Below are positions 19,084 through 37,710 of a stretch of 64,000 nucleotides of DNA, piece by piece (within the stretch, counting starts at the first letter, position 1; every line of letters begins with the position of its first letter). Made by a program: the position numbers and the translations under genes. The notes under the pieces are model-generated. The model made no database searches. It was not told where the DNA came from and saw only the letters and a list, made by a program, of their open reading frames with translations. Origin of the DNA: Escherichia phage naam. The stretch lies in sequence record MN850630.1. One strand, 5' to 3'.

Positions 19084-20309
19084 TGAGCGTTATCCAACAA
19101 TTCGCTAACCCGATGAATCCGCGTGAAACTGTTTTACTGGCTCACGGCATGATTAAACGTGTCAGCATCAAGCCTATCAAAGGTGCTGATCCTACAACAG
19201 GTATTAAAACCACTGTGTGGCAAGGTAAGAAAATTGAATCCAGCCACACCATCTCTTTACTGATTTCTGAACTGGATTCCTCTGATAACCTGCTTCAAGG
19301 TGGTGAAGAAGTCTGGATCAGCATGGGTGATAAACTGCTTAAACCGGGTCATCAAGACTCTGTCTCTGTTAAGATTGATGACAAGTGGGAAACCGTAACG
19401 CCAGGATGGATCGTAAATATCCCTTTGAAGGCAAACGAGCATAACGGTAAGACCTATTACAAAGGCTCACTGGCTAAGATGGTTAAGCTGGGTGCAGGAG
19501 AGGCTCCAGCAGCGGCTCAGCAGCAAAAACAGCAACAAGGTGCACAATCACAAGGCCAGAAGCAGAAACCTCAGCAGAATGCCAATCAGGACGTTTTACG
19601 CATCTATGGTGATGTGACTCAGATTGTTGGCAACGTGGTTACTGTTAATGACCACAAGATTGGCGAAGGTGCTATGGTTGTCACTGATGAGCAGCTTAAA
19701 GACCTGGTGGTAGGTGGTCGTGTTGCAGCCATTGTTGACAAAGACACCGGAAACATTATCAGTGGTTTCAAGGCCTATCCTCCTAAGGCAGAGAACGGCA
19801 CTCAAGGCTCTGGTGGCAAGCGTAAATCCTCTTACGACCCTATCGGTGTGGAGACGGGACATAGCATCAATGCGTTGCAGATCATCCTGGATCGCGGGTT
19901 TAAGGTGGACGACCCACTAGGCGTGGCTAAAACACTGCACGTAGTCACCATTGAGCTTAAGAAAGAGTATGCTCAAGCCACCAACCGAACTGAAGATGAA
20001 GTAGGTGCCAGTGTCGGCAATGCGGTGTTGAACGCTTGTCGCCGTATTGACAAGAAAACGAAAGTTGATGATTTTGCAGCGGCAATTACTGCAGAAGCAA
20101 AAGATGTCTTGACTAATCTGGCTGAGCCGTTGTACGATTGGATCAAGAACGGTGCTGGGTCCACTGACCATCAAGAACCTCAAGCTGCCAAACAGGAAGC
20201 AGCTCCACAGCAAAACACTGTAGACGCTCCTCCTGTAAATGACGAGGAAGATGACCCGATGGATCAGAATCCAGCACAGTACGCCTTTGATGATGACATC
20301 CCATTCTAA
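19083..20309 (+). CDS. single-stranded DNA-binding protein-like, with host-SSB-type C-terminal tail
   Basis: Last six residues DDDIPF match the E. coli SSB tip; Gln-rich linker QQQKQQQGAQSQGQKQKPQQ; acidic C-terminus; 408 aa. Confidence 0.6.
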   Translation: MSVIQQFANPMNPRETVLLAHGMIKRVSIKPIKGADPTTGIKTTVWQGKKIESSHTISLLISELDSSDNLLQGGEEVWISMGDKLLKPGHQDSVSVKIDDKWETVTPGWIVNIPLKANEHNGKTYYKGSLAKMVKLGAGEAPAAAQQQKQQQGAQSQGQKQKPQQNANQDVLRIYGDVTQIVGNVVTVNDHKIGEGAMVVTDEQLKDLVVGGRVAAIVDKDTGNIISGFKAYPPKAENGTQGSGGKRKSSYDPIGVETGHSINALQIILDRGFKVDDPLGVAKTLHVVTIELKKEYAQATNRTEDEVGASVGNAVLNACRRIDKKTKVDDFAAAITAEAKDVLTNLAEPLYDWIKNGAGSTDHQEPQAAKQEAAPQQNTVDAPPVNDEEDDPMDQNPAQYAFDDDIPF

Positions 20310-20324
20310 CATCTAGTTAACATA

Positions 20325-20353
20325 GCCCTGCCCGAAAGGGTGGGGCATTTTTG
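20325..20353 (+). terminator. rho-independent terminator
   Basis: Same hairpin as at 10191 (gccctgccc gaaa gggtggggc) followed by ATTTTTG. Confidence 0.7.
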
Positions 20354-20371
20354 TATAAGGAGATCTGAAAA

Positions 20372-20788
20372 ATGACATTAGAAGATATCATTGTTAAACC
20401 TGAGAACTATGACCAATACAACCTGTCAACTCAATCTGTAGACCTTGGATGCGCCACGGTCAGTGCGTGGATGGTTAACGGAAAAGAGCTGGATAAATGC
20501 TTAGAAGCTCACATGTCTATTAACAAGTTTCTGGATGAAAATACTCACTGGCTTGAGGGTGCAGGTGTGTATGCTTCATGGTTGGAGAGTATGGGATTCG
20601 ACTACCAATCTGAAGAGGGGTGGTGGAGCTATTTAGCTATCTGCCCAGAGACGCTGCAATGCTTCATGAAATATTCTGAAGATTTGGAGTACCGGGCGGT
20701 GGTTGATAGTGCTATTGCCCGTTATAGCCGTAAACCTTTTTCCCACGACATTAAAACTGTGGAAGAATTTGTTGAAGTTTTCTGTTGA
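20372..20788 (+). CDS. hypothetical protein
   Basis: TAAGGAG RBS; 138 aa. Confidence 0.6.
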   Translation: MTLEDIIVKPENYDQYNLSTQSVDLGCATVSAWMVNGKELDKCLEAHMSINKFLDENTHWLEGAGVYASWLESMGFDYQSEEGWWSYLAICPETLQCFMKYSEDLEYRAVVDSAIARYSRKPFSHDIKTVEEFVEVFC

Positions 20789-20884
20789 CACAAGTTGAAA
20801 GGTGTGCAATTATAACTTCATAGAACGGGAGGACGTGATGAACGAAGAAAACTGGGATGTATAACTAACAGGAGGCCACTGCCC

Positions 20885-21082
20885 ATGATTTATCGAATCC
20901 GTGTAAGAGAAGATGCACCAGGCTGTTACTTTGACTGGCGTGGGTGGTGGTTTCTCCACCCGATGGATGGACTCACAGATAGAATGCTGGATGCTGCCCT
21001 TTATACAGATACCGATATAGAATATAATCTCTATCTGAAGGATGGTATAGATAACGGTCTATTTGAAGCAATTCCTGTGTAA
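20885..21082 (+). CDS. hypothetical protein
   Basis: CAGGAGG RBS; 65 aa. Confidence 0.5.
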   Translation: MIYRIRVREDAPGCYFDWRGWWFLHPMDGLTDRMLDAALYTDTDIEYNLYLKDGIDNGLFEAIPV

Positions 21083-21150
21083 GAAACTGTGATAGCCATG
21101 TTTTATGATCTTCCTGTAGCACCACCACCTGTTGAACCCGGAGAACTAAG

Positions 21151-21576
21151 ATGATCTATGAAATGCCAAAACTGATTCGTGACGATGCCCAAAACGCTCA
21201 CACCATTATTATGGGCAAACGAATGGATATTATTTGTCATAAAGATTTCTGGGAAGGAAGTTACTTCACAGAGTATTTTGGTAAACTGGACAATGGTCTG
21301 CTGATCCAGTTCTACACCGATGCGGAAAACAACATTCACTGGGAGTTCGAAACTGAAGATATCCATAAACTTTTCACCTTCCTCGATATTAAGGTTGAGG
21401 CCAAGTTTGAAGAAGGTGAGTGCGACGATTGTGGATTCTATGAGGTAACAGATTTCTATCTCCCGAGTGGTGAGAACCTTTACTATGAAAGCCACTTCGG
21501 TAACTCCAATATGCCACAGTGCTGGACTGAGTTTTTTGAAATTGCGGAAGAGGAGCTGGCATACCGTGATTATTGA
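21151..21576 (+). CDS. hypothetical protein
   Basis: GGAG RBS; 141 aa. Confidence 0.55.
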   Translation: MIYEMPKLIRDDAQNAHTIIMGKRMDIICHKDFWEGSYFTEYFGKLDNGLLIQFYTDAENNIHWEFETEDIHKLFTFLDIKVEAKFEEGECDDCGFYEVTDFYLPSGENLYYESHFGNSNMPQCWTEFFEIAEEELAYRDY

Positions 21577-22024
21577 TACTGTAGAGGGAGATCTAATCTC
21601 CATTTTCAAGAAAGGGTCAGGCCACATGATCCACGGTTGTAACTGCTTTCACACAATGGGTGCAGGTATAGCGAAAGATATTGCCCGTGAGTTCCCTCAA
21701 GCACTGGCAGCCGACAAAGAGACTGCTTATGGTAATCTAGACAAGTTGGGTATGTTTTCTTGTTGGGAGCATTTTGCCAAGAACAGGGTCGTATATGGAA
21801 TCAACCTGTATACCCAGTTCTACCCAGGGCCCAATGCTGAATACTTCTCAATCATGAAAGGTTTTGAGCGAGTCAACGAGGTATTCAAAGGTGTGTCATT
21901 GCCGTTCTACATTCCTAAAATCGGATGCGGTATTGGCGGTCTAAAGTGGGAACATGTAGAAGATGTAATTAATCTTGCAACCACAGATATTGATGTGGTT
22001 GTGGTAGAGTACAAAAAGTGTTGA
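21566..22024 (+). CDS. macrodomain protein (TARG1/DarG-type ADP-ribose-binding or hydrolase fold)
   Basis: GDLISIF then HGCNCFHTMGAGIAKDIAREFP, the H.C...MGAGIA pattern. Track ORF 21467..22024; a GTG at 21566 after AGGAG overlaps the upstream gene by 11 nt. Confidence 0.6.
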   Translation: MIIDTVEGDLISIFKKGSGHMIHGCNCFHTMGAGIAKDIAREFPQALAADKETAYGNLDKLGMFSCWEHFAKNRVVYGINLYTQFYPGPNAEYFSIMKGFERVNEVFKGVSLPFYIPKIGCGIGGLKWEHVEDVINLATTDIDVVVVEYKKC

Positions 22025-22078
22025 CGACCATCTTCTGAGGTGATATAGTTCCCACAACAGCTAAGAGAGGAGAGCACT

Positions 22079-22249
22079 GTGGAGACTAAAATCTTAATTC
22101 TTGCTGTGGTAGATACAACCGAAGGAGCTATATTCGAATCTGCAGGAGGGTATTTCTACCTACCATACGGAAAAAGAACTTCCGAGCCAAGTAAAGATTC
22201 AATCCTCAAAGTGTTCCCGTGTGCTTTCTGGCTGGAGATTTTGGTATAA
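22079..22249 (+). CDS. hypothetical small protein (56 aa; not in ORF track)
   Basis: GTG start 6 nt after AGGAG; hydrophobic N-terminus ILILAVV; hand-translated with no internal stop. Confidence 0.4.
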   Translation: METKILILAVVDTTEGAIFESAGGYFYLPYGKRTSEPSKDSILKVFPCAFWLEILV

Positions 22250-22275
22250 GATTGCAGAGGATTTGGGAGAGAATT

Positions 22276-22470
22276 ATGAGAAACAAGAAAGAGCTTTACT
22301 CTGGTGAGTGGATCAACGATCAACAGGTGGGAGAGGTAACCTGCTTCAGATGTTTTACCAGGTACAATCTTAAAACTGCACCAAAAAGTGTTCCAAAGAC
22401 TGATGGTTATTACATAAAAGAACCTCATTGCCCAAAATGTAAATGCCGATTGTGCTGGAGCAATCTGTAA
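22276..22470 (+). CDS. small zinc-ribbon-like protein
   Basis: ATG after GGGAGAG; Cys pairs CFRC and CPKCKC; track ORF 22219..22470. Confidence 0.5.
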   Translation: MRNKKELYSGEWINDQQVGEVTCFRCFTRYNLKTAPKSVPKTDGYYIKEPHCPKCKCRLCWSNL

Positions 22471-22474
22471 GAGG

Positions 22475-22502
22475 TTGACATCTGAAAACTGCAGTGTATA
22501 AT
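22475..22502 (+). promoter_or_regulatory. sigma70-like promoter (consensus)
   Basis: TTGACA, 16-bp spacer, TATAAT. Confidence 0.6.
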
Positions 22503-22533
22503 ATACGCATAAACTAACAGAGAGCGATGCATT

Positions 22534-22725
22534 ATGGTAATTTTTAACCGGGATGGTATCATAGTTAGACAGCACCCGTTCCTTGAATACTATCAAATTG
22601 AGCAATGGTGCTACGGGGATTGCAGTCACTCCTATGGGCAAAGTTGGGGATATCGTACAGTTTTTGAATCAACAGATCTTGACAAAGTAAGACAGAAAGT
22701 TTTAGAACTTATTAACAACAAGTGA
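22534..22725 (+). CDS. hypothetical protein
   Basis: Downstream of the consensus promoter; 63 aa. Confidence 0.5.
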   Translation: MVIFNRDGIIVRQHPFLEYYQIEQWCYGDCSHSYGQSWGYRTVFESTDLDKVRQKVLELINNK

Positions 22726-22732
22726 GTATGAT

Positions 22733-23068
22733 ATGGTAACATTAGAAAGACGTAAAGCTATCGCCGCCACACTGGCAGACATCTTTTGGGAGTGCAATTT
22801 AAAAGATACCCGATATTGTGGCGCATCTGTAGATGCATTATTCCCACGGCCCACTATTGTTGCAATGGGAAACCTGTCAAACGTGGTGTATGGAGCATGG
22901 GACAAAGAAGGTGGATTTTATATCTGGCAACCTGACTACGGGACCTGGAAAGAGGTAAGGGGTGCGGATGACTTTGGGCCTGCAGTTGCCAAAACGATGG
23001 ATGGCTGGCAAATTTATGTTGGAAATGACATGAAGCTGAAAGGCGAGATTGTTTACTGGTTACCTTAA
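22733..23068 (+). CDS. hypothetical protein
   Basis: 111 aa. Confidence 0.55.
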   Translation: MVTLERRKAIAATLADIFWECNLKDTRYCGASVDALFPRPTIVAMGNLSNVVYGAWDKEGGFYIWQPDYGTWKEVRGADDFGPAVAKTMDGWQIYVGNDMKLKGEIVYWLP

Positions 23069-23088
23069 GAAAGTGCAGGAGATAAAGT

Positions 23089-23334
23089 ATGAACAAAGGG
23101 TGGACATTTGTAGACGGCGTTGAAAACATGCCTCTAGGAAAGTATATTGTAGCCATGGCAGATGAGAATGGCAAGGTTGATTTCGGAGCTTGCGAGATTG
23201 TTCTTGCAGGATCTGGTGACCATGTGCACAAAACTGGGATAATTAACGGTCATTTCTACTTTGATTACAACCCTGTTGTGGCGTATATGGCTATGCCAGA
23301 GTTAGAGCTCCCAAAGGAGGGTGCAGATGTTTAA
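23089..23334 (+). CDS. hypothetical protein
   Basis: CAGGAG RBS; 81 aa. Confidence 0.55.
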   Translation: MNKGWTFVDGVENMPLGKYIVAMADENGKVDFGACEIVLAGSGDHVHKTGIINGHFYFDYNPVVAYMAMPELELPKEGADV

Positions 23335-23524
23335 GCTTAAATCTGCATGGAACATCGCTGTGGGGGACGAGATCCGCATCCCAGGTGGAAAGACCATTAT
23401 GAAGATATCACGTATCGAGTATGAAGGTGATCGTGTATTTCATATCTTTGCAGAAGATGGTCGAGAAATTTATATACAGGCAGGCTCTCATATCTATATC
23501 CATAAGAAAGGGGACGACAAATGA
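23321..23524 (+). CDS. hypothetical protein
   Basis: AAGGAGG RBS; overlaps the previous gene; 67 aa. Confidence 0.5.
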   Translation: MQMFKLKSAWNIAVGDEIRIPGGKTIMKISRIEYEGDRVFHIFAEDGREIYIQAGSHIYIHKKGDDK

Positions 23525-35217: not shown

Positions 35218-35235
35218 TTTTTTAACTGAATTATC

Positions 35236-35260
35236 AAGGGGCTTAGGCCCCTTTCTTTTT
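35236..35260 (+). terminator. rho-independent terminator ending the plus-strand block
   Basis: Stem aaggggc / gcccctt then TCTTTTTG. Confidence 0.65.
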
Positions 35261-35878
35261 GTCTGCTCTTCCCCCTACCATAAACGGCCCTACCTGGCAA
35301 GTGGAATAATTGACGAGCCATCAATCCTACACACTGTACAAACATACATGTAAAATAGCTATTGCATAACCTTTCATTGTGTGGTAGCGGTGCTATTTTT
35401 TACCAGTTTTCCTTCCAAAATTGCACGTAATGCCGCTATTGCACAAATTTTAACCTGATGCACATCTCCAATATCTTGTCAACAACTAAAAATCTTTATA
35501 AGTCATACACTTACACAGCATCGAAAGCGTGTTCTACGCGAAAAATCGAGTATAACTATAGCCGCCAGATCTCAGAATTCACGTACGCACGCCATTCTAT
35601 AGCCTGCAAAGTATTTATTCCAACCACAGAATAACGGAATAGTCAATACCTGCATAAAATAATTATTAGTGTAAACTGCATAACATAAATCAGCTCAGGT
35701 GTCAACATTTTTCGTAAACAGTCCGAAATTATCACGATGAGTTATCATAAACAGAGAAATCTTTAGTCGTCTAATGTTTACTGTACATTACTATACTGAC
35801 TGGAATCATTAGATGACTAAGAGAAAGATAAGAAATAATTAATAATGTAATTGTTTTACCTGTAACAATAAGGCAACT

Positions 35879-35898
35879 ATGCAAACGAATGGCATGGC
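35879..35898 (+). repeat. 20-bp direct repeat ATGCAAACGAATGGCATGGC, copy 1
   Basis: Exact second copy at 36140..36159. Confidence 0.7.
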
Positions 35899-36015
35899 GC
35901 GACGGAGTCGCGACATAATATAAAAGCAGTAACCATCACCCCCGTGATAGTTTGTCTGCAATCTATTAATCAGATCATAGTTGCCTTGTATTCAGTTAAT
36001 CATGACATGATAAGC

Positions 36016-36047
36016 AAGGCAACTATAGATCTTCTAATAGTTGCCCT
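36016..36047. repeat. palindromic site GGCAACTAT-N10-ATAGTTGCC
   Basis: Further copies of the arm at about 35870 (AAGGCAACTAT) and 35977 (ATAGTTGCCTT); operator-like or iteron-like. Confidence 0.55.
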
Positions 36048-36170
36048 GCTTTTATATTATGTCATAGAAACACCCGAAGGGGTGACCAAAGGTCACCTGG
36101 CATAGCCAGTGAAAGATTATTAACTTGCTAATAGTTATCATGCAAACGAATGGCATGGCTGATTATCGGT

Positions 36171-36257
36171 GTGTAAACAGTCAATCATGTAAATGGTTAG
36201 CATGTGAACAATCAGAAATGTAAACAATCCAGTGTGTAAACTAATAGGTGTGTAAAA
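36171..36257 (+). repeat. cluster of (G)TGTAAAC(A) repeats
   Basis: GTGTAAACAG, ATGTAAACAA, TGTGTAAAC and GTGTAAAAG within 90 bp; further GTAAACAG at about 35714, 36511 and 37221, and on the minus strand at about 36368. Confidence 0.55.
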
Positions 36258-36851
36258 GTGTCATGTTGTGTCAGTTAGGTCACATTATGTCAGACAAGTT
36301 TTTCTCCTCTTTGTCAAGTGCTGCATGAAAAATTTACAAGCTTGTATGGTAGCATTTTTGCGGCCCTGTTTACATTCAGTGTTGTATGTATAATCCTTGT
36401 TGTGTGGGCGTTTAGACGTCTGGACGGTCAGAAGTCTGCAGGTTAATATCTAATCTATCGGCTGCTAACTATATCCCACACAAATAGTAAGAAATATAAT
36501 TGTTATGTGCGTAAACAGTAACCCATGTTATCAATCCCTGTATGTATCGCCAGTGGTGCGCATAATGGGTATTATGTTAAATTGCCCGTAATGATAACAG
36601 TTCTCACAATGATAGGTATTCTCATTCACCCCCACAAGATAGGTTGCAAATGTTGTGCCACTGTGTGAACGGCCTGGCCTATTAATTTGCCTCACTGCCT
36701 TGATATTTGAGAATTATTATAAGAATGAGAAGTATTCCCATTTCGTCCGCCTGGCAGCACTCCTGTAGGTCAGGTCAAAATCGTGGTAGAACTAGACCTA
36801 TCCGGATATTTCTGGCTGACTCTTCAGGTCTGTGTGGGAAAAGCCAACCTC

Positions 36852-36866
36852 TCCGGCGGGGCAGGG
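36852..36866 (+). repeat. 15-bp GC-rich direct repeat TCC(C)GGCGGGGCAGGG, copy 1
   Basis: Second copy at 36999..37015; CTCTTCAGG recurs at about 36820, 36904 and 37351. Confidence 0.5.
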
Positions 36867-37710
36867 GGAGGTCAATTAAAAAATTTACGTGGTGTATGAA
36901 GCGCTCTTCAGGTAAGGCAGGTATTATGGGATGAAACCCGCTTCAGGCAATGATATTTGTGGGTGTGATATTTGCTGGAAGGCCAGATATGACGGGACTC
37001 CCGGCGGGGCAGGGGTAGTACAGACAGGGAAAATATGGGGATGTAGTTGGGGAAATTGATCAGACAGGTAGAGTATGGAATATGTTACAGGTATGTTAAA
37101 TATGGAGGTTGAATATCTGTAGGATTTGTGTGTAAAATCAAAGACTTAAGGGGTGTTGTGGTATTTTCTATAAATAATTCAAGTTTAATAGGCAATATTT
37201 GTCTCTATCCGCTTTGTGTGGTAAACAGATTCAGATGAGATTGGTTTACAAGTGTATACATAATATACAAATTAAAGATACAAGAAACCCCCCTCCCCCT
37301 TCGGCTACCATTCACCTTTTCCTCTGACTGGTACTTAAACACTTATTCAGACTCTTCAGGTTATCACCCATATATCATATGGCAGTGACTGGTGTCCTCC
37401 GGCCCCTCTTTCGTCACCCGTCCGCTTCGCCATGCTAATGCCATAGCTAATGGTTCGGTTGTTCACCCTGTTCACTCAGGTGTATCTCTATACCCCTTCA
37501 AACCGAAGAGAACAGAAAACCCGAATTACTCGGTAAAAGAAAAGAGAAGAACTTAATTTTATCAGGATAGGCAAGAATGTCAAGGCATGACTGCTCACTA
37601 AACAAGCAAACAGTCATGTGTGGGAGGTAAGTGATTGTGGTGGTAGGAAATTTAGTTGAAAGATGTGTTATAGGTGCTTCCAGCACTTTAGCCGGGCAGC
37701 TAATTGTGTG

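Follow-up and report, generated by a model that had tools for sequence, protein, structure and literature searches.

What does a small macrodomain protein do for a phage of Escherichia coli, and on which ADP-ribosylated substrate does it act? The question is raised by a gene of Escherichia phage naam (sequence record MN850630.1), of which a stretch of 64,000 nucleotides (nt), here called the window, was analysed. The gene occupies 459 nt of the plus strand (window 21566-22024), is initiated by GTG and consists of 152 codons followed by a TGA stop (22022-22024). Over the 3.1 kb around it, nucleotide identity is 96-98% with over 100 rV5-like phages of E. coli (Vequintavirus, Vequintavirinae), among them rV5 and the BASEL phages Bas52-55 and Bas59, and the window phage belongs to the same group; these relatives are virulent myoviruses of ~136 kb. 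A preliminary description, made from the sequence without database searches, had proposed that the product is a TARG1/DarG-type macrodomain serving as a counter-measure to DarT-type toxins. We consider it likely that the protein is an early-expressed hydrolase resembling an orphan antitoxin, which clears the ADP-ribose that DarT2 places on thymidines of single-stranded phage DNA, and that it works by a glutamine-based chemistry similar to that of SCO6735 from Streptomyces coelicolor.

Macrodomain class and active site

The protein matches the Pfam family Macro (PF01661) with 25.9 bits against a gathering cut-off of 22 (E-value (E) 1e-5), comparable to the 27.7 bits of phage T4 Tk.4, and it matches PHROG 335 with E 1.7e-59. 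Its best matches in NCBIfam and PADLOC are DarG models, both partial (E 7e-12 and 1e-12); the NCBIfam model NF048014 is covered only at positions 3-144 of 338, corresponding to the N-terminal macrodomain, with 45.2 bits against a cut-off of 250. With a family profile built from 71 homologues, E 8e-15 to 2e-12 is obtained for BT1257, SCO6735, TARG1, Poa1p and the DarG of both M. tuberculosis and T. aquaticus. The AlphaFold2 model (predicted local distance difference test (pLDDT) 94.5; predicted template-modelling score (pTM) 0.89) has alternating strands and helices and, together with its matches in the Protein Data Bank (PDB), displays the three-layer alpha/beta/alpha macrodomain fold with a mixed central sheet. 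A Foldseek search against the PDB gave 158 matches at E<=1e-3, the top matches listed being macrodomains or designed enzymes. Ranks 1-24 are taken by Poa1p, TARG1, DarG and the SCO6735/BT1257 group at template-modelling (TM) scores of 0.69-0.78, with Poa1p first, and the alphavirus and coronavirus macrodomains of the viral Mac1 type rank below the ALC1/TARG1-like proteins. Since the profile matches and the Foldseek neighbours are the same proteins, we assign the protein, on sequence and predicted structure, to the ALC1/TARG1-like class of macrodomains and not to the MacroD, PARG or viral Mac1 type. Profile and predicted-fold searches, which the preliminary description had proposed as a check, thus bear out its class assignment: the Pfam match lies above the cut-off, and the model matches macrodomains.

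Both motifs from which that description had started, GDLISIF and HGCNCFHTMGAGIA, are present in the translation, and the glycine-rich loop to which it had attached weight is retained on alignment, with G34, G120 and G122 invariant or nearly so. Two glycine-rich ADP-ribose-binding loops can be recognised, G32-A-G34 and G120-C-G122-I-G-G125. Conservation was counted in aligned homologues from two large protein searches, including only those with a residue at the column concerned (~257-259). Asn26 is present in all of them (259/259), as is Gly122 (258/258), and G34 is found in 256 of 257; C27, D50, N80 and Y82 are likewise invariant in the family, and K60 is K or R in 257/259. The equivalents of N26 are N22 in DarG, N27 in SCO6735 and N23 in AdfM of phage PhiKZ, according to an alignment with residue roles taken from PMC9411070 and PMC13309987.

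The active site departs from that of the proteins after which the type had been named. Residue 84 is Gln in 257 of 258 relatives, and three independent profile alignments place it at the catalytic Lys of M. tuberculosis DarG (PTKKHW), of TARG1 (Lys84, ITKKRA) and of PhiKZ AdfM (Lys78, PTKDNW). K80 of T. aquaticus DarG likewise corresponds to Q84, so the phage protein does not have the catalytic lysine of DarG; nor does it have the Lys84/Asp125 dyad of TARG1, in whose place stand Q84 and G124. Because of the Gln at the Lys position and the Gly at the Asp125 position, "TARG1/DarG-type" is apt for the class of the macrodomain but not for its active site. The DarG macrodomain (T. aquaticus, PDB 5M31/5M3E; M. 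tuberculosis, 5M3I) otherwise shares with the phage protein the fold and class (TM ~0.74), the conserved Asn and the Gly at the TARG1 Asp125 position. It differs, in addition to Lys80, in that the phage protein has no C-terminal DarT-binding domain (152 amino acids (aa) versus ~340) and no darT beside its gene; DarG is presumed to be the evolutionary model of an "orphan antitoxin".

A glutamine at the position of the lysine is also found, in the profile alignment, in SCO6735 and BT1257. SCO6735 (PDB 5E3B) is an ALC1-like protein whose Asn27, Gln85, Gly126 and Gly128 align to N26, Q84, G120 and G122 of the phage protein, which gives the latter, in N26, Q84 and G122, the active-site arrangement of the SCO6735 subclass. 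Work by Hlousek-Kasun et al. (2022, PMC9411070) showed efficient cleavage of thymidine-ADP-ribose on DNA by SCO6735 and relief of DarT toxicity, with the Q85A mutant inactive, N27S almost inactive and G128E impaired; the authors proposed a water-initiated cleavage in which Gln85 places the substrate. They also found that the catalytically dead Q85A protein still inhibits DarT in vitro (PMC9411070). SCO6735 is unlike the phage protein in its overall sequence (~21% identity), in having Val25 where the phage protein has Gly24, and in being a cellular, DNA-damage-regulated protein.

The Tk.4/AdfM family and the proposed reaction

The functional argument comes from the orthologue in T4. The window protein and T4 Tk.4 share 39% identity over 150 of 152 residues (E 1e-43). 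Both are stand-alone proteins of ~150 aa in the same PHROG and have in common the invariant HGCNC, D50, NxYTQ and PxIGxG; they are unlike in that T4 belongs to the Straboviridae and not to Vequintavirus, and in that the T4 gene lies between vs and tk.3, the window gene among unrelated small open reading frames (ORFs). A preprint of November 2025 reported that tk.4 was the single significant gene in a T4 transposon screen, conditionally essential on a DarTG2 host, and that a clean tk.4 knockout was sensitised to DarTG2; the gene was renamed adfM, for anti-DarT factor Macrodomain (bioRxiv 10.1101/2025.11.20.689424). By analogy, this supports the counter-measure to DarT that had been proposed for the window gene. 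In the same study the Bas54 counterpart bas54_0092, whose product is 98% identical to the window protein, carried insertions at 31/31 TA sites, was non-essential on K-12, which is free of DarTG, and was listed as "hypothetical protein" (10.1101/2025.11.20.689424). T4 tk.4 is likewise dispensable on K-12, and such dispensability of bas54_0092 is as expected of a conditional anti-defence gene.

The name AdfM has also been given to gp104 of PhiKZ, which Morgan et al. (Cell Rep 2026, PMC13309987) showed to strip thymidine-linked ADP-ribose from oligonucleotides in vitro and to confer protection against DarTG2. It too is a stand-alone phage macrodomain that counters DarTG2; it differs from the window protein in sequence (22% identity, BLASTP E 9e-5), in its DarG-type Asn23/Lys78 site and in its import into the phage nucleus. 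Judged by sequence, PhiKZ AdfM is a separate lineage that shares the name with the T4/rV5 type. "AdfM" currently covers two lineages, one of the Lys type (PhiKZ, DarG-like), the other of the Gln type (T4, RB49, rV5); no comment on this split was found in the literature searched. AdfB of phage ICP1 was rejected as a relative, as it is a 77-aa DarT binder and not a macrodomain.

Homologues are numerous. A tblastn search finds them in 2,831 phage records, and at 50% identity the family comprises 1,326 clusters at E <= 1e-30, 8,551 at E <= 1e-10 and 17,972 at E <= 1e-3; macrodomains had been reported in 41% of myoviruses by 2022 (PMC9503650). Most members stand alone at ~150 aa; several close relatives carry a fused NADAR domain, and others are fusions to DUF4326 (P0146, P0179, P0195, P0231, P0245 and P0131). 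NADAR proteins (AdfN) reverse the guanine ADP-ribosylation made by DarT1 (PMC11825919), and Macro-NADAR tandems were already noted by Iyer et al.; by analogy, one protein with such a fusion would be able to undo the modifications of both DarT2 and DarT1. The NADAR-fused P0245 also weakly matches gp30.3, the AdfN family of T4. Its genomic context, a contig with flagellar and ParA genes, is not clearly that of a phage and was uninformative.

The window gene is thus an ordinary member of a known family. The rV5 product is 98.7% identical to the window protein, and the rV5 genome record has labelled its gene Tk.4 since its original version. With rV5-like genomes labelled Tk.4 or macro domain for years, and with a role shown for T4 in 2025 and for the PhiKZ macrodomain in 2026, the gene is already known, widely annotated, and the anti-DarTG2 role of its family is published.

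The likely reading given at the outset follows from the orthology to T4 Tk.4, from the DarTG2 phenotype in T4, from DarG models as the best matches and from the invariance of the residues that mutagenesis of SCO6735 found to be important (N27, Q85, G128). It is also supported by the NADAR fusions of relatives, by the dispensability of bas54_0092, by a ratio of nonsynonymous to synonymous divergence (dN/dS) of ~0.1 and by a region with sigma-70-type promoters. The phage enzyme would be made early, from host-type promoters. In an E. coli cell that carries DarTG2, the DarT2 toxin would be freed during infection and would ADP-ribosylate thymidines of single-stranded phage DNA, which would block replication. 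The macrodomain would take the ADP-ribose into its cleft and cut the bond between thymidine N3 and the ribose, so that the DNA could be replicated again. The predicted route is the lysine-independent one of SCO6735, in which Asn26 would hold Gln84, Gln84 would place the distal ribose and a water held by the backbone would start cleavage; the lysine-dependent route of DarG, TARG1 and PhiKZ AdfM is not predicted.

Several points weigh against this reading. The substrate and the role of the rV5-type protein are taken by analogy to be the same as those of its homologues, from which the experimental support comes (genetics of T4 Tk.4, chemistry of SCO6735). The evidence for T4 AdfM is genetic only, the removal of ADP-ribose from DNA having been inferred by the authors (10.1101/2025.11.20.689424), and the identity to T4 Tk.4, at 39%, is modest. 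A literature search combining DarTG and Vequintavirinae returned nothing on DarTG2 sensitivity. The mobile, DNA-binding loop of SCO6735 is missing: in SCO6735, where it is five residues longer than in DarG and TARG1, its Lys89 and Lys94 aid DNA turnover (PMC9411070), and in the profile alignment the loop residues of SCO6735 and BT1257 form an insertion of 5-6 residues after the Gln, where the phage protein has a short loop (FYPGPN) and no equivalents of Lys89 and Lys94. The motif around H23 and T30 resembles that of the ADP-ribose-1''-phosphate (Appr-1''-p) phosphatase Poa1p, whose H23 and S30 were mutated in deposited structures. Finally, Iyer et al. (2022) argued that phage macrodomains act mostly on small ADP-ribose derivatives.

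A wider version of the proposal we hold only tentatively, as possible. The T4/rV5-type AdfM proteins would form a lysine-less, SCO6735-like anti-DarT class, unlike DarG and PhiKZ AdfM in mechanism, with a broader range of substrates (thymidine-ADP-ribose on DNA, uracil-ADP-ribose on RNA, perhaps ADP-ribosylated protein), might also block DarT by binding it, and would have, in the two divergent alleles swapped among Vequintaviruses, versions matched to different host ADP-ribosyltransferases.

The last two of the points raised above lead to an alternative which we judge unlikely, namely that the enzyme acts on small soluble derivatives (ADP-ribose-1''-phosphate, O-acetyl-ADP-ribose or ADP-ribose-derived immune signals), clearing by-products or quenching host signalling. 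PHROG 335 and RefSeq carry the label "phosphatase", several records read "Poa1p-like", and Iyer et al. (2022) predicted mostly low-molecular-weight targets; they also described macrodomains joined to DUF4326, a predicted ribose-phosphate phosphatase, and such fusions are seen here as well. Human TARG1/OARD1 and yeast Poa1p are both top structural matches, with Poa1p ranked first, and the HGCNC...G-G-IA motif quoted in the preliminary description is most similar to that of Poa1p (IHSCNCNGSWGGGIA), which has IHxCNC...G-G-IA and, at positions 23 and 30, the residues equivalent to those of the phage protein. H23 is kept in 252/259 relatives and T30 stands in place of Ser30; the sequence alignment to Poa1p spans residues 15-48 only, and an attempt to extend it across Q84 failed. 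The "phosphatase" label is, however, an old motif-based annotation with no assay behind it. TARG1 and DarG (TM 0.73-0.78, root-mean-square deviation (rmsd) 2.5-3.1) fit the model geometrically better than Poa1p does (TM 0.69-0.72, rmsd 4.1-4.5), the residues essential for thymidine-ADP-ribose hydrolysis in SCO6735 are invariant, and the T4 orthologue has a specific DarTG2 phenotype.

Lower again in probability is an enzyme that reverses ADP-ribosylation of protein or RNA, whether the marks come from other host defence transferases or from the phage's own, and for which DNA would be no more than a side substrate. Glu/Asp-linked ADP-ribose on protein and uracil-linked ADP-ribose on RNA are further substrates of SCO6735 and TARG1. 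T4, which has Tk.4, also encodes the ADP-ribosyltransferases Alt, ModA and ModB. Against this, no ADP-ribosyltransferase is annotated in the inspected rV5 regions (~62 kb) or matched in the ten neighbouring ORFs, the adenine-ADP-ribose that CmdT makes on RNA has been described as irreversible, and the family's only known phenotype concerns DarTG2. A mainly non-catalytic protein, which would bind ADP-ribose or, in the manner of the DarG C-terminal domain and phage AdfB, attach to DarT itself and block it, appears very improbable: the canonical catalytic Lys is missing, the dead Q85A form of SCO6735 still inhibits DarT in vitro (PMC9411070), and two very divergent alleles in otherwise near-identical phages could reflect matching to toxin variants, but a conserved chemistry is indicated by the invariance of N26, Q84, G120 and G122 in hundreds of relatives, the Gln is needed for catalysis in SCO6735, and the divergence of the alleles is mostly synonymous (dN/dS ~0.1).

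Start codon, neighbourhood and alleles

Table 1. Features of the macrodomain locus, with positions in the window.
Feature	Position	Strand	Basis
Macrodomain gene	21566..22024	+	ORF, Pfam Macro, PHROG 335, orthologue of rV5 ORF209 "Tk.4", Bas54 bas54_0092 and T4 tk.4/adfM
Translation start: GAGGAG ribosome-binding site, 10-nt spacer, GTG	21550..21568	+	sequence; GTG aligns to the ATG of RB49 and T4 tk.4
Overlap with upstream gene, 11 nt	21566..21576	+	ORF coordinates; same overlap annotated in relatives
GDLISIF, residues 8-14, end of strand beta1 and start of helix 1; G8 nearly invariant	21587..21607	+	alignment, AlphaFold model
HGCNCFHTMGAGIA, residues 23-36, first ADP-ribose-binding loop; G32-x-G34 is the Gly-rich loop	21632..21673	+	alignments to SCO6735, DarG, TARG1 and Poa1p
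N-L-Y-T-Q, residues 80-84; Q84 at the catalytic-Lys position	21803..21817	+	profile alignments
P-K-I-G-C-G-I-G-G, residues 117-125, second (diphosphate-binding) Gly-rich loop	21914..21940	+	alignments
Transcriptional context: small same-strand genes between a terminator-like hairpin (20325-46) and a sigma-70 promoter (22475-22502)	20325..22502	+	consensus scan

The start codon had been placed at a GTG that overlaps the upstream gene, and three lines of evidence agree on it: the position of the ribosome-binding site, the annotation in relatives and the alignment of the N-terminus to RB49 and T4. The Pfam, PHROG and T4 Tk.4 matches and the dN/dS of ~0.1 between divergent alleles put the gene well past coincidence. 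In the ORF listing the enclosing reading frame runs from 21467 to 22024 (plus strand), with GTG 21566-21568 in the same frame. On inspection, the GAGGAG site is seen at 21550-55, and its arrangement with the GTG is kept in five Vequintavirus relatives. The upstream ORF (21151-21576) stops at a TGA at 21574-76, and the 459-nt coding sequence with its 11-nt overlap is annotated identically in A51.2, rV5_ev147, rV5, O157 typing phage 14, HMD-6 and Bas52-55. The N-terminus MIIDTVEGDLI pairs residue by residue with the ATG-initiated Tk.4 proteins of RB49 (MIIDTVKGDLI) and T4 (MIVKYIKGDIV). Two other starts were rejected: the GTG at 21467 of the mechanical ORF (185 aa) would add 33 codons inside the upstream gene, where the homologues' N-termini align to 21566, and the internal ATG at 21626 (Met21) would remove strand beta1 and the conserved G8-D9, residues 1-20 being conserved with RB49 and T4. 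The overlap between the two genes suggests, from the sequence, that they are translationally coupled; it does not show that the two are linked in function.

Upstream of the gene are the replication genes (rIIB, helicases, primase, DNA polymerase); the gene itself is one of a long series of small ORFs on the same strand. The consensus scan found a GC-rich terminator-like hairpin at 20325-20346, a promoter-like site at 20785-20813 and, just 5' of the ORF at 22534, a sigma-70 promoter that matches the consensus at 12/12 positions (TTGACA, 16 nt, TATAAT; 22475-22502, plus strand) and corresponds to P205 of rV5. Since sigma-70-type promoters are annotated throughout the corresponding rV5 arm, the macrodomain gene is probably transcribed by the host RNA polymerase and expressed early.

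All ten flanking ORFs fall only in PHROGs of unknown function. Among them Pfam gave no ADP-ribosyltransferase family, its sole match being a small Zn-binding domain (22276-22470), and a linked toxin or transferase was rejected as a candidate, none of the ten neighbours matching a transferase. Nor is a darT or other ADP-ribosyltransferase gene annotated beside the macrodomain gene in relatives or within the inspected rV5 regions (~62 kb, most of the window). Rfam returned no structured RNA within 18-40 kb, and the window contains no tRNA. The upstream gene (plus strand) encodes 141 aa, belongs to PHROG 8157 and has no Pfam match; for its counterpart, ORF210, the rV5 record notes similarity to NP_891635 of RB49, where the latter adjoins dam.

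Two genes downstream of the macrodomain gene, the ORF at 22276-22470 (plus strand, 64 aa) matches Pfam Phage_zn_bind_2 with E 9e-22. It corresponds to rV5 ORF206, similar according to the rV5 record to RB49p090 (NP_891661), the gene directly after tk.4 in RB49; the RB49 stretch considered is 19857-20496. T4 Tk.3 is not similar to it (T4 Tk.1-3 are DUF7202 and DUF7438), so no partner gene in common with T4 is apparent, and a T4-type partner was rejected. RB49, a Krischvirus, has the closest Tk.4 outside the Vequintavirinae among those compared, at 68% identity; its gene is unlike the window gene in its ATG start and in its canonical T-even position (vs-tk.4-tk). The higher identity to RB49 than to T4, together with the shared Zn-finger neighbour, suggests from sequence comparison that a block of tk.4 and the Zn-finger gene moved between Krischvirus and Vequintavirus.

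The gene itself varies more than its surroundings. Compared with typing phage 14 and HMD-6, identity per 50-nt bin is 64-90% in the macrodomain gene and 92-100% in both flanks. Overall these divergent alleles are 78-79% identical at the nucleotide level, with a synonymous divergence (dS) of ~1.1-1.2 and a dN/dS of ~0.10, and all active-site residues are retained in both Vequintavirus alleles. In the phage collection, 43 records have 95-99% amino-acid identity to the window protein and 63 have 80-90%, a band that includes the second allele. Going by these comparisons, the gene is a sharp-edged swapped cassette, both versions of which are under purifying selection. As the divergence between the alleles is mostly synonymous, an exchange of cassettes at an anti-defence locus seems to lie behind it, and not an adaptive change of the protein surface.

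Other observations and significance

Three further observations concern the window and its relatives. At window 20309-20372, where a 408-aa gene is followed by another ORF, rV5 (ORF213, "endonuclease VII") and Bas54 (bas54_0088, "putative homing endonuclease") have an additional gene of 624 nt between the two. Neither the window nor A51.2, typing phage 14 or HMD-6 possesses it, and such a presence/absence polymorphism is typical of a homing endonuclease. Around window 35220-37700, ~2.5 kb between two convergently transcribed arms are free of genes and give no tRNA or Rfam match. Short direct and inverted repeats occur in this stretch, among them a 20-nt sequence present identically at 35879 and at 36140, and a perfect inverted repeat of 18 nt (35912 and 36046). 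The stretch corresponds to the gap between ORF163 and ORF164 in rV5 and to an intergenic region of Bas54 that took no transposon insertions (HIDEN-SEQ preprint), and could serve as an origin of replication or as some other essential cis element. Lastly, 16 records named "Campylobacter phage" (e.g. C15 and A12a, ~135 kb) are ~96-97% identical to window 20300-23400, and are probably mislabelled or contaminant genomes and not true Campylobacter phages.

For the family, the glutamine of T4-type AdfM offers a ready mechanistic contrast to the lysine of PhiKZ AdfM and DarG, and the existing Bas54 transposon library already contains bas54_0092 mutants. Vequintaviruses are candidates for phage therapy, and the gene predicts that they resist defence of the DarTG2 type.

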